From: an uncultured delta proteobacterium
GTDB lineage: Bacteria; Desulfobacterota; Syntrophobacteria; Syntrophobacterales; Syntrophobacteraceae
Assembly (NCBI GenBank): GCA_963808625.1
Contig: CAWEHK010000004.1
Span: 1 to 64,000, forward strand
Direction: 5' to 3'
Length of the DNA: 64,000 nucleotides
The first letter of the stretch is position 1; each line of letters opens with the position of its first letter. Of the stretch, positions 8,327 to 64,000 are shown in pieces. A program made the position numbers and the translations under genes. The notes under the pieces are model-generated. The model was given only the letters and a program-made list of their open reading frames with translations. It was not told where the DNA came from and did no database searches.

Positions 8327-11300
8327 TTATTCTATTGTTATGTTGGCGCACTTAGACCACCCGGACAGAGCCCCCTTGTCATCTTTCGCTTGCGCTTTGA
8401 CGCAGTAAGTGTTGGCCTTCACCCACTTATGAGCCGCGGAGGACTTCGGCCTCCAACTGCTTTTGACGCCATCACCCCAGTCGAAGCGGTACTGCAGGGA
8501 ATCACCATCGGGGTCGGTGGCCTTTACCGTGAACGTGTAAGACTTATTCACCTTGCCGTGGCTCGGACCTGCCGGCGGCTCAACCGACGGGCTACTGTTC
8601 ACTAGCACGTAATTCAGCTTAATGACCAAATCGCTTCCCTCAGGTCCTTGGATGGTAAGACTAACCGTGTAGATCCCAGTTTTTTCGTAGATGTGAACAG
8701 GATTCTTCTCGGTGCTTGTCGTTCCGTCCCCGAAATCCCAGAGCCAGTTCGTGGGATTGCCGACCGAGGCATCATGGAATTTCACCTTCAGGGGTGGTTT
8801 TCCCTTCACGTTGGATGCCGAAAAGTCGGCAACTGTTGCTGTTTGATTGGTTACAAAAGTTGAGAGGAAACTCTCTGCTCCAGCGTTATCGATGGCGCTA
8901 ATCGCAAACACGCGCACCGGATTTTCCCACGGATAGCTCGTAGCGTACTGGGTGGCAGAAGCCGCGACGGTTTTCACCATCTTTAGCAAAGGCTCTCCTT
9001 CTTTTCGAGTGTACACCCGGTAGCCCGCAGGCCCCGGCTCAGCAACCGGAGCCCACGTCAGTTTCGTTTTCTTCACACCACTTACAGTCATTGGCACCGC
9101 TTTCAAATTCTGCGGCCTGGGTGGGTGCTCCTGGATGTTGATCGGGCGCTTGGCCGCTGAATCCAGCTGGAAGGAAAAAGATACGGCTTGTCCCGGATAG
9201 AAAAGGGCCACCTTCGTCTCGTAGGTGATGCCCTCTCCAAGGAAGCTGAGAGTCACGAACACCTCCCCCACCGATTTGCCAGTCAAGGTAACCGCAAAGG
9301 CCCCATTGGAAGGGTTCACCAGCCTAATTCCACCACCGCTAGGATCGCGAATGATATCGCACGCCCCCGGACTGTCGTAAACTGTTTGATTGCCGTCATC
9401 GATGCCACATTTGGTCCCAGCAGGCTCGATGATAAGGGGCGCCGCTCGGCCGCGAATTGACATGCCGAGCACGGTCGGCGGCGGGCCTGCACCTTTCAGA
9501 GCGCGGCTTCCAGTGATAGTGGCAAATGTACGATCTCTATCCAGAAACTCTGCTATGGCAGGTGTTAACCGTCTAATGAGGGACTTATGCTGCCCTCGAT
9601 CTTTCGGCGGCATATTTAATTCATCAATGTGATCAATGTCTTCAAAGATGGCGCTTTCCTTCCACAGCACCGTTCCGTCCCCTGCCTCCTCTATTGCGGG
9701 TTCGCCGCTGGGCTCGCCGTCTTCATAGAGATTATTGTCTGTGCTCGGCTTAACCTTGATCTGTTTGATAGTTTTCTCTTTATTGGCACCGAATATCTTG
9801 GTTTTCACCTCCTCGTTGGGTCCGGGCTTGATCCGCTTTTTGTTTGGGTCTTTATTCAGCTTAATGAGCCAATCATTCCTAGTTTTATTATCATCGATTT
9901 TAGTGTTGCTGCCACTTAGGCAGTTATCGAAAGTAGGCATTAGCTGGTTCACGGAACTCACGAAGAGGTGAAAAAACCCTCTCGCCCGCTCCTTGCTAAT
10001 ACGCCACCAAATTGGGCCGTTATCCCAGACCCAGTAGAACATTTCCTGGCCGCCCATCAGTTCCATGTAGTTTAAGTCAGCTACTACGGAATAAAGATAA
10101 CGAGGAAAGGACTTAGCCTCCTCGTCAAGTGTCTTCGGATCGCCACCCTCCCAGAGATAGTACGCATTGAGAGATCCATGATTGGGGGTCCCGACCATAG
10201 CAAATTTGTCGATGTCATGGTTGAAATCTTCGCTCTGGATATAGCTCCTGACCAGGAGTCCCCCCATGCTGTGAGCTACAACATCCACCTTGTCCCAACC
10301 GGTGTACAGTCTTGCTTGATTGATCACAGGCACAAGATATTTCTGATACGTATCTTTTGTTTTTCCCAGGTACACCCTCCAGTCGTATGGGCAAGCGTAA
10401 ATTTCGTAACGGTCCTTCAGGGCATTCCACAGTGTGCTCCAACCTACTTCTTCATAATGAACTGGACCGAGGTCGATATCGTTGTAAAGTTTCAAGTCAT
10501 CTTGGGATGCTGGATATTGAGTCGGAAGTGTGGGATATGCGCCTATGTAACTCTTTACTGTGGTACCCATGAAACCAGGAACGAAAATAACCGGTCTCTT
10601 TTTGGAACGCACCAATAGGCTACCTGGCTGACTGGTCTCACCCTCACTTACTGTGACCCGATGTTTACTACTCTGCCGATCATTGTATGTGGCCCAGACG
10701 TTGTAACTGCCGGGCGGGACTTGGAGGAACTCAAAGACTCCATTGTCTCCCGACTGGGTGGTCTGGACGATATTATCGGAAAAGAGGTCGGACAGGTTAA
10801 CGGTTGCACCCTGGAGCAGCGCCACATTTTGGCCGGATGAGTCGTACACGTGACTTCTTATACTCCCGAAGACCTGCACGGGTGCTTCAACTGCGAAGTC
10901 GTTGCTGTCACCATAGATGGCGCCGGACTGGGCATGAATATGAGTAGCCTGCGAGGGTTCGTTGATGGCCACTTTGAACGTTTTCTCCCCATTAGCCAAG
11001 GTCACCTGGTTGGGGTTAATCAATCCGGCGGAACCCGACAAAGAGAGATAGACCTTGCCATTGAAGCTGGCGACAGAGTTTTTTGCATAATCCTCCGCTT
11101 GGATTCTTACCTGAAAGGCTACATTGACCTTTTGGTTGGGGAAGGTATGGTTTCCGTCCTTCGAGACTTTAAGATGATCCAATTCGCCAGTTACACCTTC
11201 GATCACATAGCTCACCTCGTTGCTCTTCCCTCCGGTGGCGTCATCAATGGCCCACCAGCTGTAGGTGCCGGGTTCCTTGTTCCACGGGGCGGTGTAGGTG

Positions 11301-43177: not shown

Positions 43178-43326
43178 AGCGCTTGTCAGAAAATAACTTG
43201 TTCTCATTTCGACCCTTTCTCAAACCACGAAGGGCACGAAGAACACGAAGTGATAAGTTGTTGACCCTCGTGACCTTCGTGATCTTCGTGGTAAAAGAAG
43301 GTGTCTTATTTTTGGACACCTCCTTA
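43178..43326. mobile_element. ~150-bp MITE-like element (related copies ~56757-56905 and ~58988-59133, the latter inverted)
   Basis: Termini gtccaaaaataa / ttatttttggac; internal accacgaag...cttcgtggt hairpin; conserved ctcatttcga. Confidence 0.8.
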
Positions 43327-53880: not shown

Positions 53881-54049
53881 GCTACTGAAAGGTCCCACGA
53901 GGTATTATTTCCTGTATTTGTCAAATACCATGCCTGTTGTGCTTACTCAAGTTGATTAACGGATGAGGCATCAGTTGTTGGTTTTGAATGGCCTCTTTGC
54001 TATAGTTCATTTTTTCCTTTCTGTCTTCCATATCCCATAGGTGAACACC

Positions 54050-55340
54050 ATGACCAAAAGACGGCCACAAGCAACACTCATCTCCTGGGTTCTCTATGAT
54101 TTCGGAATGGCCTGGTTTTCCATGGTCATCATCACGGCCTACTTCATCCTCTATTTCAAGGAAGTAGTGGTTGGCGGCGACAAGGGGTACGGGGATTTCT
54201 TGTGGGGCATCGCGGTCTCGACGGCCATGCTGGTCTCGGTGGTGCTCTCACCGTTCCTGGGAGCCATGGCCGACATGCGACGCAATAAGAAGACCTTCCT
54301 GATCGCCGCTGCCGGGTTATCGATCATCAGCACGATCCTTCTCTACTTCACCGGGCCGAACCAGGTGTTCCCGGCAATGCTGCTGGTGGTCACCGGGTAT
54401 GCCGGCTACACCATCGCCATGACCTTTTACAATGCCTTCCTCCCCGAGATTGCCGGGACCGAATCCCTCGAGAAGATTTCCGGGATCGGCTGGGGCATCG
54501 GATACATCGGCGGCCTCACGGCACTTGTCTGCATGGCCTTCATGGCGCCGAGCGTTGCCGATGGGAAGCGCTGTTATCCTGCTCGCAGGGGCCATGTATG
54601 CGCTCTTTGCCCTGCCTTCTTTCATTCTGCTCAAAGATTCCCCCAGCACGGCCGACGCCGCGCCCGCTTCCATGGCTGACGGCTTTCGCCGTATCGTTGC
54701 AACATTCAAGGAAATTCGTTCGTACCGAACCGTCTTCGTGTTTCTCCTTGGATATTTCTTTGTTGCCGACGCCATGTCGACCATCATCGTTTTTTTCTCC
54801 TCGTATACCGTGGACACGCTTCACTTCAGCGTGCGGCAAAACGTCATGCTGCTCATGATCATCCAGCTTTCCGCGGCGGCCGGCGCCGTTGCTACGGGAT
54901 TTATCGCCAAACGGATCGGCGCCTTGCAGACGGTGATCCTGACGATCGTGGTGTGGATTGGGGCGCTCCTGGGGATCTTTGCGTTCTCGAGCACTTCCGC
55001 ATTCTATGTGATTTCCGTCTGCGCGGGGCTGGTTCTCGGCGGGACGCAGGCGACCGCGCGGAGCTTCATTGCCCGCGAATCGCCTGCGGATAAGCAGGGG
55101 GAGTTCTTTGGCTTCATGACCTTCGGCTCGAAGGTGGCCGCGATCTTCGGGCCGTTGCTCTACGGGGTCATCTCACAGCAGACGAATAACCCCCGCATCG
55201 CCATCGTCTCGCTTGAAGTTTTCTTTATCGCCGGGCTGCTCGTCATGCTCAGAGTACCCCGCGAGAGCGCCTCGATTAGAATCCACCGCAGAGACGCAGA
55301 GAGCGCAGAGAAAAACCAAGAATCAGCAGAGAACAACTAA
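54050..55340 (+). CDS. MFS transporter, UMF1/ATG22-like (frameshift near 54570)
   Basis: SWVLYD, SPFLGAMAD, FYNAFLP, GWGIGYIGG, EFFGF, IFGPLLYG. Confidence 0.85.
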
Positions 55341-55494
55341 AAATCATCGGTACGAACAACGGAGGGCGGGTTTTCTAACCCGCCACCGCGAGGAGCGCAG
55401 AGGATAACAAAGAATTCTCTCTGCGACCTCTGCGTCTCTGCGCTGAAATTATTGTCATCGACCACTGCATCAGACCGACCACCTCCGGCTACCG

Positions 55495-56722
55495 TCAGGC
55501 CAGCACGCGGGAAGCCTCGCGCATGAGTCTGGCGATGGCCAATCCCTGGGGGCAGGCTCGCTCGGCCTTCGCATAGTCCACTTCAGTCAGTCTTGCCCTG
55601 GCCTCCTCGGAAAGACCGGCAAAGACCTCCCGCGCCAGATCGCGGTCGCCGTAATCGCGGTAATACATGAGGCAGCGCATCACATCGCTCACCGGGACCG
55701 CTCCGCCTACGGCCGCCTGGCAGATGCGCCCGCAGCCGGCGCAATAACCCGAACAGGTCTCCCTGGCGAAACGGTCGAGGAGTTCGAGATCGCTGCGGCC
55801 CAGCTTCGTAAGGTCTCGGGCGGCGGCCACATTGGCCGAGAGGATGGTAAGACTGGGCATCTGGGAGCAGATGCATGGCGATGTTCGGGTTTTCCCACAC
55901 AGCCTTGAGCTTGGCCTGCTTGTCGGTGAAGCCGCGTTCGAGAAATCTTCCGGCGACTTGCAGTTCGGCCTCGCTGTCGGTCTTGACCGGTCCGCCGCCC
56001 TGGGTCTTCATCGCCACCAGGCCAATGCCGGAACCAACGCAGGCGGCCACCGCCTCCTTCATTTTCGGGGTGTCCATGAGGCGGAAATTGTAGGTAAACA
56101 TGATCGCATCGATCCAGTTCACCCTGGCCGCAGCCAGCAGGCAATCCTCCATGTTGGTATGGGTGCTGAACCCGAAGAACTTCATCTTGCCCGCCTTCTT
56201 CATTTGCGCCGCCCATTCCTTGATCGGCATCGTCGATCTCGTTCAAGGCGCTGATGCCATGGCAAAAGAAGAGGTCTACATAGTTCGTGTTCAGCTTCTT
56301 CAAGGATCGTCTCAAGGCTTTCGGTCATCTTCTGCGGGTGCACCGGGCCGGCTTTTCGTCACCAGGAAAATTTCCTTCCGGGCTTCGGGGTTGCGGGTGA
56401 AAAAGCGGCCCATGCCTTCTTCGCTCAGTCCGTTGCCGTAACCTTCAGCCGTATCCCAATAGGTCACTCCCCAATTGTAGGCCTGCCGGAGCAGCAACTG
56501 GTTGTTGACCGTATCGAACATCCCGCCCAATGACAGGATCGATACCTCGACCCCGGTTTTTCCCAATTTCCTCTTCGGTATGGATGGCGCTTTGCCCTCG
56601 CTGTCCGCCTGGGCGGCCACGGCCTTCGTCACCTCGAAGCTCGCTGTCGCCATCCCGCCAACCCCGACCGTCTTGATAAAGTCGCGGCGCGTCAACCCCT
56701 TTTGCTTTTCTCTCTCCGCCAT
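55495..56722 (-). CDS. Tat-signal aldo/keto reductase with C-terminal Fe-S motif (frameshifts)
   Basis: TRRDFIK, KRKLGKTG, WDTAEGY, AMKTQ, YCAGCGRIC, ACPQG. Confidence 0.85.
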
Positions 56723-56953
56723 ATGAACAACCTCCATAGGCCTGAATGCATTGCCATAAGGCTTCGTCCAAAAATAACCTGCTCTCATTTCGATCCTTTT
56801 TCAAACCACGAAGGACACGAAGAGCAGAAGAAATCACTTCCTGTCCTTCGTCATCTTCGTGCTCTTCGTGGTAAAAGAAGGGATCTTATTTTTGGACAAC
56901 TCCTGACTGTCCGAGTCTTATTTTCATCCTTTTGGGGGCCCCTAACGGGAACA

Positions 56954-57566
56954 CTACCTGGTCACCGCCTTGCCCTGCCTGAGGTCGTAGATCGGTTGAA
57001 ACTTCAATTCGCCCAGCAGGATGTCCTCGGGCTTTTGCAGGGACAGATCGCCATTGATTGCCAGGAAGCGCATTTCGGCGTCTACGGGAAAACCATTGGC
57101 AGCAGCCTGTTCGAAGCCCACCCTGGCGGCACCGTATTGCGGTTCGGCCTTGCTCTTGTGGAATTGCTGGCGCCATTGCATCCATTGGGCGACATTGGCC
57201 TGAGACCGGTCGACGAAGACATAAAAGGTGACCTTCCCCGGGCAGTCCTCTTCCAGATACAGGGTATATTCTATGGGACCGGATTGCTTATCCCAGGCAG
57301 TGACCCGCTTTCGTTCGCCCTCTTCGATCAGCCAGGCAGTCGCGCAGGAACGCGACTTGACGAAGTCTCGTCACCTTGCCGAAGATGAAGGCCGGTTCGA
57401 CCTCATCGGCCACGAAATTCCCGGAGAGAAAGGTGTCGGGAGGCGTGTACTCGGACAAGGCACTACCGGCTCGCAGTTTCAAGGCCTGCTCGCTTGCCGC
57501 CCCACTTACGGCAGCGAGCGCCAATACCAGGGAAAACCCCAAAAGCATTGAGCAAAGACGACGCAT
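56954..57566 (-). CDS. Secreted hypothetical protein (frameshifted)
   Basis: GGAGGG RBS, signal peptide; split across track ORFs 57288-57566 and 56954-57181. Confidence 0.6.
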
Positions 57567-57793
57567 AATCCCTCCTCTCCACGAGTTAATTTCTCAAACG
57601 CGCAGGCAAAAGCCTGCTCAGGATCATCCAGGGAACCGATTAGCACAGAACCGCATAAATAAGTGTCAGAATTCAGTTTGTCATACCGGCGAAAGCCGGT
57701 ATCCAGGTAGTTTTTCTGGATTCCGGTTGCCACCGGAATGACGCATAGGGATCAAGGTCACTTTATTGTGTGGATCTGTACTTAGCCTGGTTT

Positions 57794-58820
57794 TTACTCT
57801 ATCCAGGCAAGATGTTCCTCGAACATCGCATAATGTTTTCTGATCATTTCCGGAATGGGCAAGCCGTAGGGACAGCGTTCGATGCATTCGCCACAGTCGA
57901 TGCAGTTGGCGACCGACGCCATGGCTTTTGCCGAGAAGCGGGCCGCCGTACCGGGAGACATCCGGTGGGCAACGACCGGGTAGATCATGGACGGGGTGAT
58001 CATGACCCCTTGGGGGCACGGCTGGCAGTATTCGCAGCGGCGGCAGAAGTGCTGCCCAACTTCCGCCCGGCACCGTTCCATAGCCTCCAGATCTTCCGGC
58101 GAGACGATGTTTTCCGTACCATAAAGAGCAACAATCTCATCGACTCCCTCAACGGCATCGAAACCGGGCAAGGGGATGACATCGGGCCATTGGCGCAGAT
58201 ATTTGAAGCAGAGCTTCCCGTCCTCGAGCGCCCCGCCGCCGAAGGGCTTCATCGCCAGAATGCCCAGGTCGAGTTGCCTGGCCACGGGGTGGAGTTCCCC
58301 CTGCGCGGCCTCTTCAAGGAAATTGAAAGGGAACTGGACGGTGCTGAATAACCCGGTCTTGATGAGCTTCACGGCCATCTCGAGGCTGTGGGAAGTAAAC
58401 CCGATATGCCTGATCTTCCCCGCTTCCCGCGCCCGCACGACCGCTTCCATGGCCCCGTTCGGTCCCATCAGGGTTTGGTAGTCGGCTTCCTGAGAAACCT
58501 GGTGGAATTGAAAGAGATCAAGATAATCGGTGCGAAGCACCCGGAGGCTCTGTTCGATCTGGGCCTCCGCGCCCTCGGAATCCCGCTTTATGGATTTGGT
58601 GGCCAGGACCACTTGATGGCGCAGCCCCTCAAAGGCCAGGCCGATTTTCTCCTCGCTGTCGAGATACATATTGGCGGTATCATACAGCGTGATCCCCCGG
58701 TCATAAGCCCGTCGCAGCACCCTGATCGCTTCCTGGGGTGGAAAGGCGAATAATAGGAATACCGCCAAAGCCGACCTCAGAGACCTCGATGCCCGTTTTT
58801 CCCAGTATGCGATAGCGCAT
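57794..58820 (-). CDS. Aldo/keto reductase with 4Fe-4S domain (frameshift near 58745)
   Basis: MRYRILGKTG, YDTANMY, AMKPFGGG, CRRCEYCQPCP, CIDCGECIERCPY. Confidence 0.9.
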
Positions 58821-59141
58821 GGTGCTCCTCTCCTTTGTGCTTGACGAAAAGGCAATCAGCGAACGCATGATGAGCCTTACCAACCAAGAGATCTTACCTT
58901 CCCGCGCCGCCTGGGGCAAGTATTCATGGTTTGAAACCCTTGCCGACGGCGTAAGCCTTGCCGAAATACGTGCTCATTCCATCGCGTGTTAAGCAGATGC
59001 CTAAAAACAAACCTTTTTTACCACGAAGAGCACGAAGAAAACGAAGGACTGGAAGTGATTGCTTCGTGCTCTTCGTGCCCTTCGTGGTCTGAAATAAGGT
59101 CAATGAGAGCAAGTTATTTTTGGACGGACCCCAAGGGACCG

Positions 59142-60624
59142 CTAGGTCGCGCGGGGTTTGGCGGAAGAGGCCATCACGCTGGTCAGAAATTCGGCGAAGA
59201 GGTCAGGATTGGCCTGCTTCATCAGCCTTCGGACGTCAATGGGGTCAATTTTCTTGACCAGTCTCAGGCTTTCCTCGTTCTCACAGAGGATGATCCCCCG
59301 GAAGAAAAGCATTGCCAGCTTTACGGGACTTGCTTCTTTCGTCAGAGATTTCTTGAGGGATGAATAGCTGTCCACCAGTTCCTTCAAGCCGTCGTGGAGG
59401 CGAACTACTTTGCGTTCGAAGAGACCGTTGATCCGCGCGTGACTGGGCAGCCACGCGGTGGCGAGGTCCGCATCAAACCCATAGCCAACGAGGAGATCAT
59501 CCCTCAGGTCTTTGAGTTCATCATCCTTCAGGTGCTGCCAGTCGATGGCAGCAGAATCGATCAGGCACCCTTCCCGGTAGCACTGTCTGGCAGTTTTCCC
59601 ATCACCACGCAGCCAGTAGGCATCTCCGAGATACCCGTAGAGTGCGGCGTTGTGGGGCGCTGTGGGGATGGCGGCCTGAAGGTGCGTTACCGCCTGCTCA
59701 TCTTGCCCTGCTCGCAGGAAGAGATATCCAACCGGGATTTCGCCGCCGATCAATGCAGCATCAACAAGGCCATGCTGCTCAATCTCCCCGAGCATCGTTT
59801 CAAAGAACGCCTTCTGCAGTTCCGATATCAGCCTGTCATTCCTCCTCATTCCATGAGCTTGAACAGTGTCTTCAACCTCATTCCAAAAGCGGCACAGATG
59901 CGGGATGCGCTCATCGACGTCGACCGGAGCCTCCCGCAATCCCTCCAATAGGAACTCGGCCAGCGCTAATTTTGGGGACGACATCGTGCCCCTTGGGATA
60001 GATTCGCTGGTGCTTTCGGAACAACTCGATGGCTGATTCCAACTTCAGGGCCTTGAGGGCCTGAAGTCCCTGATTGACCAGGATCATGTCGTTCTGGGAA
60101 AAGAGGGAAAGCTGCCTGGTTTGGCCCGGAGCAGGGGTTCCTGGGGCGTCGAGGGGATTTCCTTCTCCAGCAGTTTCGCTGGTGGCTGATTCTTCGGCAG
60201 GCTGTCGAAGAATGCTTCGGAGGAGGCCTTCGCCCATCCGGGTTATCGCGGCAGCCTTCTTCACGTTGCCAAGGTCCCGTGCCAGGCGGTTGAGGTGCTG
60301 AGCAAAAGCGAAGGTTACGGGAGCATCGACGCCACCCAGGGGAGTCGCGATAGTCTGTTTTCCGTGTTCCGGGCAGTTCACCACCGGGAGCTTCGCAAAC
60401 AGGTGGGTTTGCTTCTGACAAGTATCCAGATGTCGCCAGGTCTTCTCTTCCGTGTGATCGCAAACCGGGCAGGTGCGAGCGCAGAGCGGGCAGGCGAAGA
60501 GCTCAGCCTCCGTGTGTTCCAGGTACACGCTAACCCTGGCCGCGTCATCTTCGGCGACAACGGCTTTCACATACCACGGGGGAACAAGATTCAGCAGCCT
60601 CTGATAAAGCTCTCCAGCTTCCAT
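59142..60624 (-). CDS. Chimeric ISL3 Zn-finger/HTH + QLSLF + TPR-like protein (probable frameshift near 59975)
   Basis: CPLC...DHTEEKTWRHLDTC...CPEHG (zf-ISL3); no DDE domain; QLSLF at 60100-60114; TPR-like AALYGYLGDAYWLRGDGKTARQCYREG. Confidence 0.7.
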
Positions 60625-60824
60625 GTTTCGTTCCTCGATGACCTAAAATTGAAGTCAGCTCTTCCCAAAATCCATCGCACTGGAATCTCCATTTCTGAAG
60701 AATCCTTTGGTTTTTCATTTCGAAATTCGCAATCGCAATCTTACTAGAAAGTCCATTGCCCTGCACACGTGCCATTGAGGCCTCTCATGTCAAGAAGAAC
60801 TTGATGGGCACGACTGGCTGGGTC

Positions 60825-62168
60825 TCATCCGCTGGCGCAGCAAAGAATCTCGCGGAATTTTCTGGTCAAGGGGTAGACAAAGACTGCTTTAGTGGGCACT
60901 TGCTTTTTTTGCTTCTTGCCATAGAGGCTGTAACCATCGGTTGTTCCCAAGCGAATCCAGTTGGCAGCCTTGTAACAAGTCCCGGTGAATCGGTCGAGCT
61001 GCACGAATGTCTCCAGCAGGATTGGTCGGTAGTGGTATCGTTCTTCCCAGTCATGGGGCAGACGTCGAACGATGCCGCCCAGAATTCGCGAAGCCAGATT
61101 CGGGCACCTGATCCACGGAAGGATAAGAAATCTTGCGTTACTGACAACGTACCTCAGGTTCGCAATTCGCTGCTCGTCGTTCCAACCGATGAACCGATCG
61201 CGGCTCGACAGCCGCCATGCACTGGAGGCAAAACCCAGCACAGCGAGCAGGATACCGTTTGGAGACTTGTCCGAGTCAGGGAAGGCTCTAATCCCGTGGA
61301 AGAGTGGGTCCACGCCACAGACAGGCTTGTCGCGATCAGATGGGGCCCCGGTTTTCCGGGCTGCCGAGTTTTCCGGCACGGGTTGAGGATCTGGCTTTTT
61401 GCTGCCATAGACGAGATATCGCACCTGCGGGCCAAACAGTCGGCTGCTCTTGATGTAATGATGCTCGCGGATCATGGCATTCCAGAGCCGAATATCCTCT
61501 TGAGATCTGACCACTACAAACCGCAATGCTTCCGTGTCGTGAGGAGCCGGTTCCATCGTTTCCGGGGGTGCAGCGAGTGGCTTCCCGATACGCATGCGGT
61601 GTGCGCGTTTATTTTGCGGTAACGGCGGCAGGGTGATGAGGTTGTCCATGTCCATCCGCTTCAGGATGTCACAAACGGTTTCATATCTCATTTTCCCGTT
61701 TGGCTGGTACAGCTCGTACCTGGCGCATATCTCCCGGGCAAGCTTGGCTCTAGCGTTCTGAGGGTTCGAGGCAATAAGGTCTCTGATGGTTTGGATCTGT
61801 CTTGCGGAAAAATAGATGCCGATGTAGCGATGCTTCAGGTTGTCCCAATCGCTGTCGCTGCGGTCAGGAGAATGTTCAAGGAAAGCAAGGAGGCGCTCGA
61901 TGACAGCTTCTCTGGCTGTGGGGTCGCGGTCAGGCTTGGAAAAATAGGCCATGCCTTCTTTTGCGAAATGCTGCTGGCACTTGATAATAGATAGAGGCGG
62001 CACACGAACATCAAAAACCAGCCTGTCCACGCTTCGCCCTTCGAGAGTCCCGAGGATGATTTTCGCACGCTTTATTCTCCAGATCCCGGCCGTGGTGCTC
62101 CGGGCAATCTGTCGCAGCTCCTCTTCTTGCTCCTGCGAACACAAAATAGTAGGGATTCCGCTATCCAT
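60825..62168 (-). CDS. IS630-like HTH fused to DUF4338 (Druantia DruA-like) domain
   Basis: N-terminal EQEEELRQIARS...RAKIIL; then LWNAMIREHHYI, RYLV, AWRLSSRDRFIGW, RFLILPW, NLASRIL, LLETFV, GTCYKAANW. Confidence 0.8.
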   Translation of the reverse strand: MDSGIPTILCSQEQEEELRQIARSTTAGIWRIKRAKIILGTLEGRSVDRLVFDVRVPPLSIIKCQQHFAKEGMAYFSKPDRDPTAREAVIERLLAFLEHSPDRSDSDWDNLKHRYIGIYFSARQIQTIRDLIASNPQNARAKLAREICARYELYQPNGKMRYETVCDILKRMDMDNLITLPPLPQNKRAHRMRIGKPLAAPPETMEPAPHDTEALRFVVVRSQEDIRLWNAMIREHHYIKSSRLFGPQVRYLVYGSKKPDPQPVPENSAARKTGAPSDRDKPVCGVDPLFHGIRAFPDSDKSPNGILLAVLGFASSAWRLSSRDRFIGWNDEQRIANLRYVVSNARFLILPWIRCPNLASRILGGIVRRLPHDWEERYHYRPILLETFVQLDRFTGTCYKAANWIRLGTTDGYSLYGKKQKKQVPTKAVFVYPLTRKFREILCCASG

Positions 62169-62200
62169 TTCCTGTCCTGCCACTAATCCCGTGAAGATGT

Positions 62201-64000
62201 TCAATTCGGGACCTTGCGCCCGCATAGCTGGGCCATGGTAGCGAGATAAAGTCCTTTCCTTTGGCGATTGTTATATCTGAAGATGGTGTCAACCAGCCCC
62301 TGATGGAGTCTCCCGAAGGTTTGAGCATAGCGTTTGCTGACCCAGCGATAGTAATTTTCCATGCTCTTCATGTTTTGCGTAAACTGGATTCGGATAAGCT
62401 CGTCGATCAGTTCGTCCGCACGCTCATCGAAGAAATCCTCCAGCTTTGCGGGCGGCCCGCCGGGAGCCGGCTGATATTCCTGGACGAAGACGTAAGCCCC
62501 CGGTAGGGAACGCAAAAAGCGGAAGCGTTCGACGTCTTCGGCAAGGGTCGTGTCGAATCCATACATGCAGATGAACTCAACATTGTCTCGCCGGGTAAAA
62601 TCAAACATCTGATATTGTTGGTGCACTTCCTCCAGGTTGCGACTGTCATTCAAACTAAAATGCATCACGCGGCGGGTGAAACGAAGATTGCAACAATGGA
62701 TGCGTTTCAGCAGCCGGACTTTTTCCTCATCCACCAAACGGAGATCCAACGTTTGGGTGAAGTTGACCTGCAGGTTGCGCACCGCCATTTCTTCGAGGAA
62801 ATCTCCGGCTCTGGGGTGCGCCAGGATATTATCGTCCAGGAGGAGGAGCTTTCGTCTACCGTCCGGAAGCAGTTCATCAAGATCAGCGACCTGCCGCGGC
62901 CGGCCTTCTTTGATGGGGACGACACAAAAAGGGCAGTGAAAGGGGCAGCCTCGGGTGAGGAAACCCATGGCGCGATCGCCGAGCTCCGGATAGAGACTGT
63001 AGTCGGCAGGCAGCTTTTCTATTTCCGCTGGCAGACGCTTCTCAAGGTCGATCCCGGAACCGCCGACGATGAGCGAATCTCCATAGTACCTGCGCAAATT
63101 AACCATCCGGTTTTGCGTTACCGGGCGGGAAAAGACACCGCTCGCATAGACGGCTTCAACCCCTTTCATGAACGCTTCATGCCGCGCCAGAATCACACGC
63201 CGTCCCTGTTCTTTGAAATGGCGGCTGAGTTTCATCAAGCGCCAGATTCGGCAGCCGACTGTCCACATCCACGAGCAGGATGGCGCCTTGGGGTGCGCGT
63301 GCTGGATGCTTGTTTGGCCGCTCGGTATCGATGGGAAGCTGACAGGTCCTGGCGAGGAGCTCGCCGGGAAAACGGAGGCGGGATTGATCGTCTACCAGCT
63401 CACCACAAATTGCATTTCAGGGAACAGCTCATCCATCAGCCTGGCCCAGCGGGGAAAAAGCTCTTCGGTGCACATTTGGTCAGGGCGGTCGAACAGGATC
63501 AGACCGGGGATATCCAAGGGCTTGCTGTGCTTTGGGTAGGCGTCAAGCAGGTGGCGTGCGGCATCCAGGGCCGGCAGGACGGTGCGTTGCTGCCATGGAG
63601 CAAGGCTCAGCCACTGGCGCTTGAAATCGCATGCTTCTTCCATCCAGTTCGTGGTGTCGATGGCAAAATGTTCCTTGAGCACGCGCGAAAGACGTTCCAG
63701 CGTGTGCCTCGACCCCAGACGCTTATGCTTGGCCCCCCGGTAGTGGATCCGGGTGAGGAATGCCACCGGGTCGGTTAACGGCGACCCGTCAAGGAACAGG
63801 GACTGAAAGCGGGTGAGGCGAAAAAGGGGATTCGTGAAATCAAAATCATCGGTCCCATCATGGTGTTTTGGTTCCGGTCCATAGCCAAGCAAGAACAGCC
63901 ACGAATCACCGATGCCGGTTTTGGCTCTCCTGATGGGCATGTCATAAGGGAGAAAACGGTATTCTTCGCGGCGTAAATTCCTGACCAATCCTTTCTCGTC
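62201..64000 (-). CDS. Degenerate ABC-ATPase-like domain fused to radical SAM domain (5' end off window; frameshifts near 63400 and 63240)
   Basis: GLILFDRPD...FPEMQFVV; linker; ILLVDVDSRLPNLAL|MKLS; GGSG; DYSLY; TRGCPFHCPFC (CxxxCxxC); LLDDNIL. Confidence 0.75.

Follow-up and report, generated by a model that had tools for sequence, protein, structure and literature searches.

The window considered here comprises bases 1-64000 of contig CAWEHK010000004.1 (C4 below), which ends at 65310 and belongs to a genome of 54 contigs that is 84.6% complete. Our subject is its far end, where five minus-strand open reading frames (ORFs) fill the stretch from 59142 onwards and make up three genes, here called A, B and C. 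An earlier note, made from the sequence alone, had described three co-directional chimeric genes assembled from transposase, defence and DNA-modification parts, and had proposed that they act together as an operon. The three chimeric genes are present and every domain call could be reproduced with tools; the operon could not be upheld, and we suggest below that A and B may form a cassette of their own. The window genome is labelled G000, other G numbers denote related genomes, and L numbers denote fetched loci. The features of the three genes are as follows.

63392..64378, minus strand: gene A, N-terminal ORF of 328 amino acids (aa), running past the window end at 64000; PtuA-like ABC-ATPase head without catalytic residues
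64178-64219, minus strand: gene A, degenerate P-loop
63479-63502, minus strand: gene A, Walker-B-like segment LILFDRPD
63269..63391, minus strand: gene A, linker (VDDQSRL...RLPNLAL), readable in another frame only (three-frame translation)
62201..63268, minus strand: gene A, C-terminal ORF of 355 aa; Rossmann-like (cobalamin-binding-domain-like) domain and radical S-adenosylmethionine (SAM) core
62924-62947, minus strand: gene A, CxxxCxxC motif, as CPFHCPFC
60825..62225, minus strand: gene B, ORF of 466 aa; the likely start at 62168 gives 447 aa, as in the database copy
about 61866-62153, minus strand: gene B, IS630-type helix-turn-helix (HTH), upstream of DUF4338/DruA
about 60837-61547, minus strand: gene B, Mom-like GNAT domain, preceded by the winged-helix-like part of DUF4338/DruA
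59911..60624, minus strand: gene C, N-terminal ORF of 237 aa; zinc (Zn) ribbon, HTH, linker and QLSLF
60361-60492, minus strand: gene C, ISL3-type Zn ribbon
60100-60114, minus strand: gene C, QLSLF motif
59142..59984, minus strand: gene C, C-terminal ORF of 280 aa; helical TPR-like domain

Counting from the likely start of B at 62168, genes A and B are 32 nucleotides apart, in keeping with the spacing of about 30 bp reported before, and the gap between B and C is 200 nucleotides. No DDE domain was found in the ORFs of A, B and C, nor in the 1.3 kb from the window end to the contig end, and the claim that a catalytic transposase is lacking is thereby borne out.

Genes A and C are both interrupted in the window. 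The halves of A are parted by two compensating one-base frameshifts, near 63395 and near 63240, and the roughly 50 connecting codons between both shifts are readable in another frame only; relatives are continuous there. Gene C carries one frameshift, near 59968-59984. At two of these three sites, contigs of a related organism (public run X3) are one base shorter, namely at 59968 and at 63240; the third site, near 63395, is not bridged by related contigs. The public runs found by the search carry at most 10% of the sampled words, and their contigs align to portions of the stretch with identities of about 88-99%. The assembly also breaks genes elsewhere. For the SNF2 gene of the window genome (G000:C48:14686-18975, about 1420 aa), matches over 4.3 kb are spread across no fewer than three open frames, and, compared with G001, the aldo-keto reductase (AKR) ortholog in window region 55495-57593 is split into three frames (it is whole in G001) and a 231-aa gene into two. 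Given the intact ORFs in relatives, the base missing from related contigs and these other broken genes, the three frameshifts are probably indel errors of the assembly. The substitutions relative to related contigs speak for selection, a point on which the earlier note had wished for evidence: of the 40 best supported, 32 fall at third codon positions (binomial p 2e-9), with a further 399 substitutions outside this count. Contigs from an RNA library of relatives (run X12) cover A, B and C, although contigs are no proof of transcription and DNA may have been carried over.

Gene A was compared across 33 related loci from a genome collection. Since its two halves lie on one strand and in order at all 33, and a single ORF of 694-803 aa spans them at 26, A is one gene encoding one protein of about 700 aa, and the fusion is real. 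Many relatives of the radical SAM ORF in the database have lengths of 580-622 aa, 622 aa being the upper length limit of that search, and their N-termini align to the 328-aa ORF.

The reading of A as a degenerate ABC-ATPase fold joined to a radical SAM domain withstands structural comparison. In a model built from a 32-sequence alignment (pLDDT 85), residues 6-328 match the PtuA proteins of Septu and retrons at Z 18-19.6 (best match 8eea_B, root-mean-square deviation 3.9, 283 residues aligned), followed by AriA (Z 14.6) and the Rad50/SMC heads (about 14). The fold of these first 330 residues is shared, over some 275 aligned positions, with PtuA of Septu and of the type I-A retrons Ec78/Eco7 and Ec83 (PDB 8eea, 8sux, 9vhe, 9e91), and both A and PtuA are accessory genes of variable regions. 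At the level of sequence, PADLOC models of PtuA match the N-terminal half of A (best E 5.8e-7), and a profile of the A family searched against sequences of solved structures finds retron PtuA (E 5.6e-8) across the signature and Walker B segment. The catalytic residues are another matter. None of 27 full-length relatives has GK[ST] at the aligned P-loop (a lone match to this pattern in the census is a chance one, in an N-terminally truncated relative), the catalytic glutamate after Walker B is replaced in these relatives by R, Q, H or C, and the H-loop histidine is missing from the family. With the Walker A lysine, the catalytic glutamate and the H-loop histidine all lost, the head, judged by its motifs, cannot work as an ATPase and is dead across the family, whereas PtuA needs ATP hydrolysis (PMC12673091). 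The HNH nuclease PtuB was found neither among 135 neighbouring ORFs of the 33 A loci at E 1e-5 nor in the window, and in place of PtuA's effector partner A carries a fused radical SAM enzyme.

A language-model search with residues 1-335 of the A protein of G005 (L069:5809-7932) returned an unnamed 319-aa cluster on top (score 0.95), above clusters of AAA_15/AAA_21 ATPases. This cluster has 144 members, and viral entries account for 56% of the members with a record; the dead PtuA head may here have a viral relative that stands alone.

The C-terminal half of A matches Pfam Radical_SAM (PF04055) with E 2.6e-6 and 28.1 bits, slightly below the cut-off of 29.5 bits. The three cysteines of its CxxxCxxC motif (C460, C464 and C467) are invariant in 32/32 sequences, and the sole other invariant cysteine is C586. 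Structural matches of residues 345-685 are led by MgmA (Z 16.6), with MtaB, MiaB and RimO at about 15 and then CysS, AprD4 and TsrM, down to 14.6. The Rossmann-like domain aligns to those of MgmA, TsrM and CysS and may bind cobalamin. Much the strongest sequence match is to phrog_9298, with E 7.6e-45 for the half of A in the window, which covers positions 18-259 of 305 in the profile, and E 3.8e-49 for the ortholog of G005 (PHROGs carry no curated cut-off). By sequence, this half of A is thus a member or close relative of a family that stands alone in phages and plasmids. The stand-alone relatives share 30-37% identity with it; proteins of phrog_9298 such as gp19 of Clostridium phage phiCT453B and gp14 of Bacteroides phage BKO1-TP3 are about 290-330 aa long and, unlike A, have no PtuA-like head. 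The phage relatives sit among genes for exonuclease, helicase loader, RusA, RecT and DNA methyltransferase, and the plasmid relatives next to a PRTRC gene of the ParB family or to a gene for a coupling protein. When viral contigs were scanned with the A profile, none of 27 pattern matches was confirmed as a relative, a weak result as only two peptide patterns were used.

Gene B likewise has the composition ascribed to it, an IS630-type HTH followed by a full DUF4338. Pfam DruA/DUF4338 (PF14236) matches it with E 4e-36 and 125.1 bits against a gathering cut-off of 27, and matches all 38 aligned relatives. For residues 25-120, hhalign gives an alignment to the HTH of a DDE_3 transposase from the IS630 family (probability 82%, E 1.1e-5), HTH_29 is found in 7/38 relatives and HTH_32 in 4/38, and a Pfam search finds no DDE_3 domain in B. 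The model of B (pLDDT 82) comprises two helical modules of DNA-binding type and then a GNAT fold, in agreement with PMC10853773, where DUF4338 is termed a GNAT. For this last domain (residues 227-463), Mom chain 8bv8_B ranks first of 48,161 chains, with Z 13.8 over 168 of 202 residues and a lead of 2.4 Z over the next GNAT; Foldseek, at weak E-values, lists NAT10, FeeM, TTR, Mom and TmcA. Both Mom (PDB 8bv8, PF25680) and B are linked to DNA-binding elements, and the likeness between them is structural only: Mom is a 231-aa phage protein, whereas B is a larger HTH-GNAT protein without a significant sequence match to Mom. With DruA of Druantia type I and the DUF4338 proteins borne by insertion sequences (ISs) B has PF14236 in common, but the PADLOC model of DruA reaches only 11.6 bits (E 0.027) on B, and neither DruB-D nor the DruE helicase was found in window positions 54000-64000 or up to the contig end.

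Elsewhere in the window genome, five further DUF4338 genes accompany transposases (G000:C29:120599-124009 and 89266-92676, C24:170-3580, C39:589-3999 and C24:76026-79427). Four of them form two near-identical pairs, one of 2.5-kb units in which DUF4338 is upstream of a DDE_Tnp_1 gene and one of 2.3-kb units in which it is upstream of a DUF4277-type gene; the fifth encodes a 788-aa protein in which DUF4338 is fused to a Tn5-like transposase. The shorter of these paralogs give weak matches to Pfam Mom (E 5e-4, 20 bits against a cut-off of 27.1). Gene B differs from the IS-borne copies in its IS630-type HTH, in having no transposase partner and in its pairing with A.

This pairing recurs. Gene B lies directly downstream of A at 13 of the 27 collection loci that could be judged, one of these being a remnant cut by an IS630 element (the other six loci end too near A), and follows A in 4/6 judgeable relatives and in the window, giving 18/34 with each locus counted once. 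The loci with B are scattered through the Desulfobacterota clades of the A tree. Over 11 loci the identities of A and B co-vary (Mantel r 0.93, reached by none of 5000 permutations), as would also be seen under shared descent with the host. Gene A occurs in 8/60 relatives and in 3/300 genomes drawn evenly from the phylum, and, at 59-75% identity, in metagenome-assembled genomes (MAGs) of Thermodesulfobacteriota, Acidobacteriota, Verrucomicrobiota, Spirochaetota, Chloroflexota and Pseudomonadota. It is rare and patchily distributed over at least six phyla, in variable regions, and the pair is horizontally spread. The neighbours of A vary, with HicA, PIN, AbiEii, Mrr, AAA_15/21 ATPases, NACHT, TOTE AEP, Schlafen and IS transposases among them; B excepted, any given neighbour is shared by about six of the 33 loci at most.

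Two loci show B in a partial state. A fragment resembling its N-terminus lies upstream of A in L025 (118-460). In L043 (NaphS2; 9061-10404) B looks cut by an insertion, since its first 40 or so codons are followed by an IS630-family transposase.

Gene C joins an ISL3-type Zn finger and HTH to a QLSLF motif and a TPR-like region, as the earlier note had it, but it is a neighbour of A and B rather than a conserved partner. Pfam Zn_ribbon_ISL3 (PF14690) matches it with E 4.2e-9 and 37.1 bits (cut-off 25.5), and the NCBIfam ISL3 transposase model NF033550 reaches 46.5 bits against a cut-off of 180, covering only positions 2-117 of 370. ISL3-family transposases thus share their Zn ribbon and HTH with the first 150 or so residues of C; in contrast to them, C lacks a DDE domain, is single-copy in each genome, and is TPR-like over its C-terminal 300 residues or so. 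Matches to TPR families fall below the Pfam cut-offs in the window copy and are carried by its relatives. All ten fetched relatives encode C as a single ORF of 478-566 aa with a conserved rQLxlFxQnD motif, in which Q and F are kept in 10/10. The consensus of beta-clamp-binding motifs, which bind DnaN, is of the QL[SD]LF type.

The range of C is narrow. It occurs in 12/36 genomes of its family and in none of 24 genomes from other families of the order and class, and its database family has about 115 members with source names nearly all from Syntrophobacteraceae. A profile of C matched none of 913 ORFs from 33 A-bearing loci in other genomes. Within the genus, the window genome and G005 are the only two where A adjoins C, and G005 has no B; in G006, which is syntenic with G005, the place of A is taken by an IS and a remnant of A, the latter 3 kb upstream of C. 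The two genes lie on separate contigs in G003, G023 and G028, eight genomes have C without A (G001, G004, G006, G008, G015, G016, G019 and G026), and C is usually flanked by neighbours other than A. The individual fusions are conserved among homologues, but the order A-B-C is not conserved as a unit; the conserved unit is A with or without B. Gene C may be a domesticated DNA-binding protein of Syntrophobacteraceae-type genomes that lies downstream of A and B here merely by position.

Large DNA enzymes often accompany C, among them an SNF2 helicase, a UvrA-like ATPase, Cas3 and a helicase-nuclease with DUF4011. Genes directly upstream of C and co-directional with it are found in G019 (a 2020-aa protein of DUF4011 helicase, MTES_1575 nuclease and DUF3320; L074 5775-11837) and in G004 (an 868-aa UvrA-like ATPase; L068 5541-8147). 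The SNF2 helicase, of about 1400 aa with a 940-aa N-terminal region of unassigned type, lies two genes from C in G001 (L067 3760-8025). A helicase of the same type, 48% identical to that of G001 over its full length, adjoins A in a Desulfatiglandales MAG (L037 9171-13343), and relatives also occur near A in L039 and L044. As a candidate member of the system it was dropped because its ortholog in the window genome is on another contig.

What the cassette might do is a question of interpretation. Our preferred account, held tentatively and with somewhat less than even confidence, is that A and B constitute an undescribed two-gene cassette of conflict type, predicted to add a chemical modification to nucleic acid, or to remodel one, where hosts and mobile elements are in conflict, with C a separate gene. 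DNA bases would be the most likely target. The dead PtuA head could serve as a scaffold for oligomerisation or for docking nucleic acid. Gene B would bind DNA through its HTH and then acylate or aminoacylate a base in the manner of Mom with Gly-tRNA, and the radical SAM domain of A would methylate or rearrange either the base or the appended group; at loci without B, this domain might be able to act alone. Mom, itself a GNAT, glycylates N6-adenine of double-stranded DNA from Gly-tRNA (PMC13219725, which makes no mention of Druantia). A precedent for radical SAM remodelling of an amino acid on a DNA base is offered by gp53 of phage M6, a glycyl-thymidine isomerase that rearranges the glycyl group in DNA (PMC8989533); gp53 is spore-photoproduct-lyase-like and A class-B/methylthiotransferase-like, and no homology is claimed. 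A role in modifying nucleic acid, suggested at the outset, has become more plausible with the Mom-like GNAT and the phage and plasmid radical SAM family, while the mechanism is one predicted from folds and neighbours.

Several aspects of the data weigh against this account. Firstly, we know of no substrate, product or phenotype on record for A, phrog_9298 or DUF4338, and all mechanistic steps rest on fold resemblance and neighbouring genes. The structure of A was modelled on the intact ortholog from G005, of the same genus, rather than on the broken window copy. For B, Pfam Mom (PF25680) gave no match at E 0.1, and a profile searched against the sequences of solved structures gave chance matches only, so that the link to Mom is not one of sequence. 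Secondly, B is missing at 16 of the 34 judgeable loci, including all five from Verrucomicrobiota and all five from Acidobacteriota, and A therefore does not need B. DUF4338 is moreover far commoner than A (2564 against 491 database matches) and in the window genome accompanies transposases of three kinds, and thus has a role of its own. Thirdly, the neighbourhoods of A mix housekeeping genes with defence genes, and the PADLOC (2023) models yield just the weak PtuA and DruA matches given above for A and B. Lastly, active PtuA-PtuB complexes cleave tRNA-Tyr (PMC12673091, PMC13096335), which makes tRNA an equally natural target.

Should the account nevertheless hold, it would extend what is known of several families. 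To our knowledge, the ABC-ATPase scaffolds of PtuA, OLD, Gabija and PARIS type have only nuclease effectors, and with a radical SAM enzyme joined to such a scaffold, here catalytically dead, this class would gain a new kind of effector chemistry. It would also tie phrog_9298, an uncharacterised phage and plasmid family of replication modules, to a cellular cassette, and bear on DUF4338/DruA, which is an unexplained part of Druantia type I and is often carried by insertion sequences. A Mom-like fold with a radical SAM partner suggests a testable idea, namely acylation of a base followed by radical remodelling, and a two-gene unit with intact orthologs may provide a handle for finding new modifications of DNA or tRNA. 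We found no publication joining PtuA and radical SAM, supplements being outside the search, and among the publications found that combine Septu, radical SAM and defense, none concerns such a fusion, as judged by title or abstract.

The alternative that fares best, unlikely as we hold it to be, is abortive infection directed at tRNA. The PtuA-like head would dock a tRNA, the MiaB/MtaB-like radical SAM domain would alter or disable it, and B would use or acetylate charged tRNA. That PtuA is the best structural match of the head (Z 19.6), that Retron-Eco7 as well as Septu PtuAB cut tRNA-Tyr (PMC12673091, PMC13096335), and that MtaB and MiaB, to which the radical SAM half aligns at Z of about 15, are tRNA enzymes are all consistent with this, as are the presence of TmcA and NAT10 among the GNAT relatives of B, the use of Gly-tRNA by Mom, and the variable, defence-like neighbourhoods of A. 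Other observations fit less well. The three auxiliary-cluster cysteines that define methylthiotransferases are not in A (none is invariant in its Rossmann-like domain), and the NCBIfam MiaB model (TIGR01574) reaches 15.6 bits on A against a cut-off of 355. PtuA function needs ATP hydrolysis and is abolished by E396Q (PMC12673091); in A, hydrolysis is impossible. The two HTH modules of B are of DNA type, and the phage and plasmid relatives occur in modules of DNA replication and recombination.

A more specific form of DNA modification, which we regard as distinctly unlikely, is that A and B are a cellular two-enzyme pathway of DNA hypermodification, the new mark serving as a self-label or an anti-restriction shield for the island that carries them. 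An HTH-guided, Mom-like GNAT would move an aminoacyl group from charged tRNA onto a DNA base; the dead PtuA head, the active relatives of which handle tRNA-Tyr, would dock that tRNA; and the fused phage-type radical SAM domain would then rearrange or methylate the adduct.

Ordinary metabolism is a still more doubtful explanation. Gene A would be a cobalamin-type radical SAM enzyme acting on a lipid, a cofactor or a natural product, and B its regulator with an acyltransferase domain. The best NCBIfam matches of A are indeed to B12-type radical SAM models of lipid and oligosaccharide pathways, albeit weakly (E 2e-5, 23 bits against cut-offs of 360-400), CysS, AprD4 and TsrM are among the structural matches, and there are many metabolic genes among the neighbours of A. 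However, each neighbour is shared by about six of the 33 loci at most, so that a conserved biosynthetic partner is lacking. The rarity and patchiness of A (3/300 phylum genomes), a fused domain of a type known only from defence systems, and a closest family, phrog_9298, that is a phage family argue in the same direction.

The original proposal, in which A, B and C are one system and domesticated DNA-binding modules of ISs bring modification or surveillance to the replisome through the predicted clamp motif of C, we now consider very improbable. In its favour are the adjacency and common direction of the three genes in the window, the position of A directly upstream of C in G005 and of its remnant near C in G006, the retention of QLxLF among the relatives of C, and the large DNA enzymes often found beside it. 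Against these stand the lack of any match to C in the 913 ORFs of A-bearing loci, the restriction of C to one family while A is found in at least six phyla, the three genomes with A and C on different contigs, the eight with C and no A, and the 200-nucleotide gap between B and C. One part of the proposal that stands is that the N-termini of B and C are homologous to those of IS630-type and ISL3-type transposases and that both proteins lack a DDE core; the joint operon is not supported, and the three-gene picture is partly an accident of adjacency. Least of all can we credit the suggestion that these genes are debris, functionless remains of elements of the IS630 and ISL3 families together with an enzyme gene in decay: three frameshifts within 5 kb, transposase-type N-termini without DDE cores, DUF4338 paralogs inside IS elements and a dispersed repeat abutting C would suit it, but all three architectures are intact as ORFs in many genomes, substitutions favour third codon positions (32/40), the region is single-copy with no DDE gene up to the contig end, and related contigs stay in frame at two of the three frameshift sites, while the assembly breaks other genes likewise.

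Some features of the surroundings may be added. Past 64000, the extension of the contig that the earlier note had pointed to holds no DDE transposase; it carries a pair of genes for a MazE-like antitoxin and a PemK/MazF toxin (C4:64544-65187, plus strand; PemK_toxin E 1.3e-27), divergent from A, and stops 120 bp past this pair. On the other side, between the AKR gene and the end of C, lies a dispersed repeat of about 115 bp (59003-59135), apart from which the 6.3-kb stretch is single-copy in the genome. It resembles a repetitive extragenic palindrome (REP) or a miniature inverted-repeat transposable element (MITE) and contains a 27-nucleotide imperfect inverted repeat (59020-59046 and 59062-59088) of CACGAAG-like units. 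Further copies occur at 56765-56881 and 43190-43310, and the genome holds 48 more matches at 69-96% identity.

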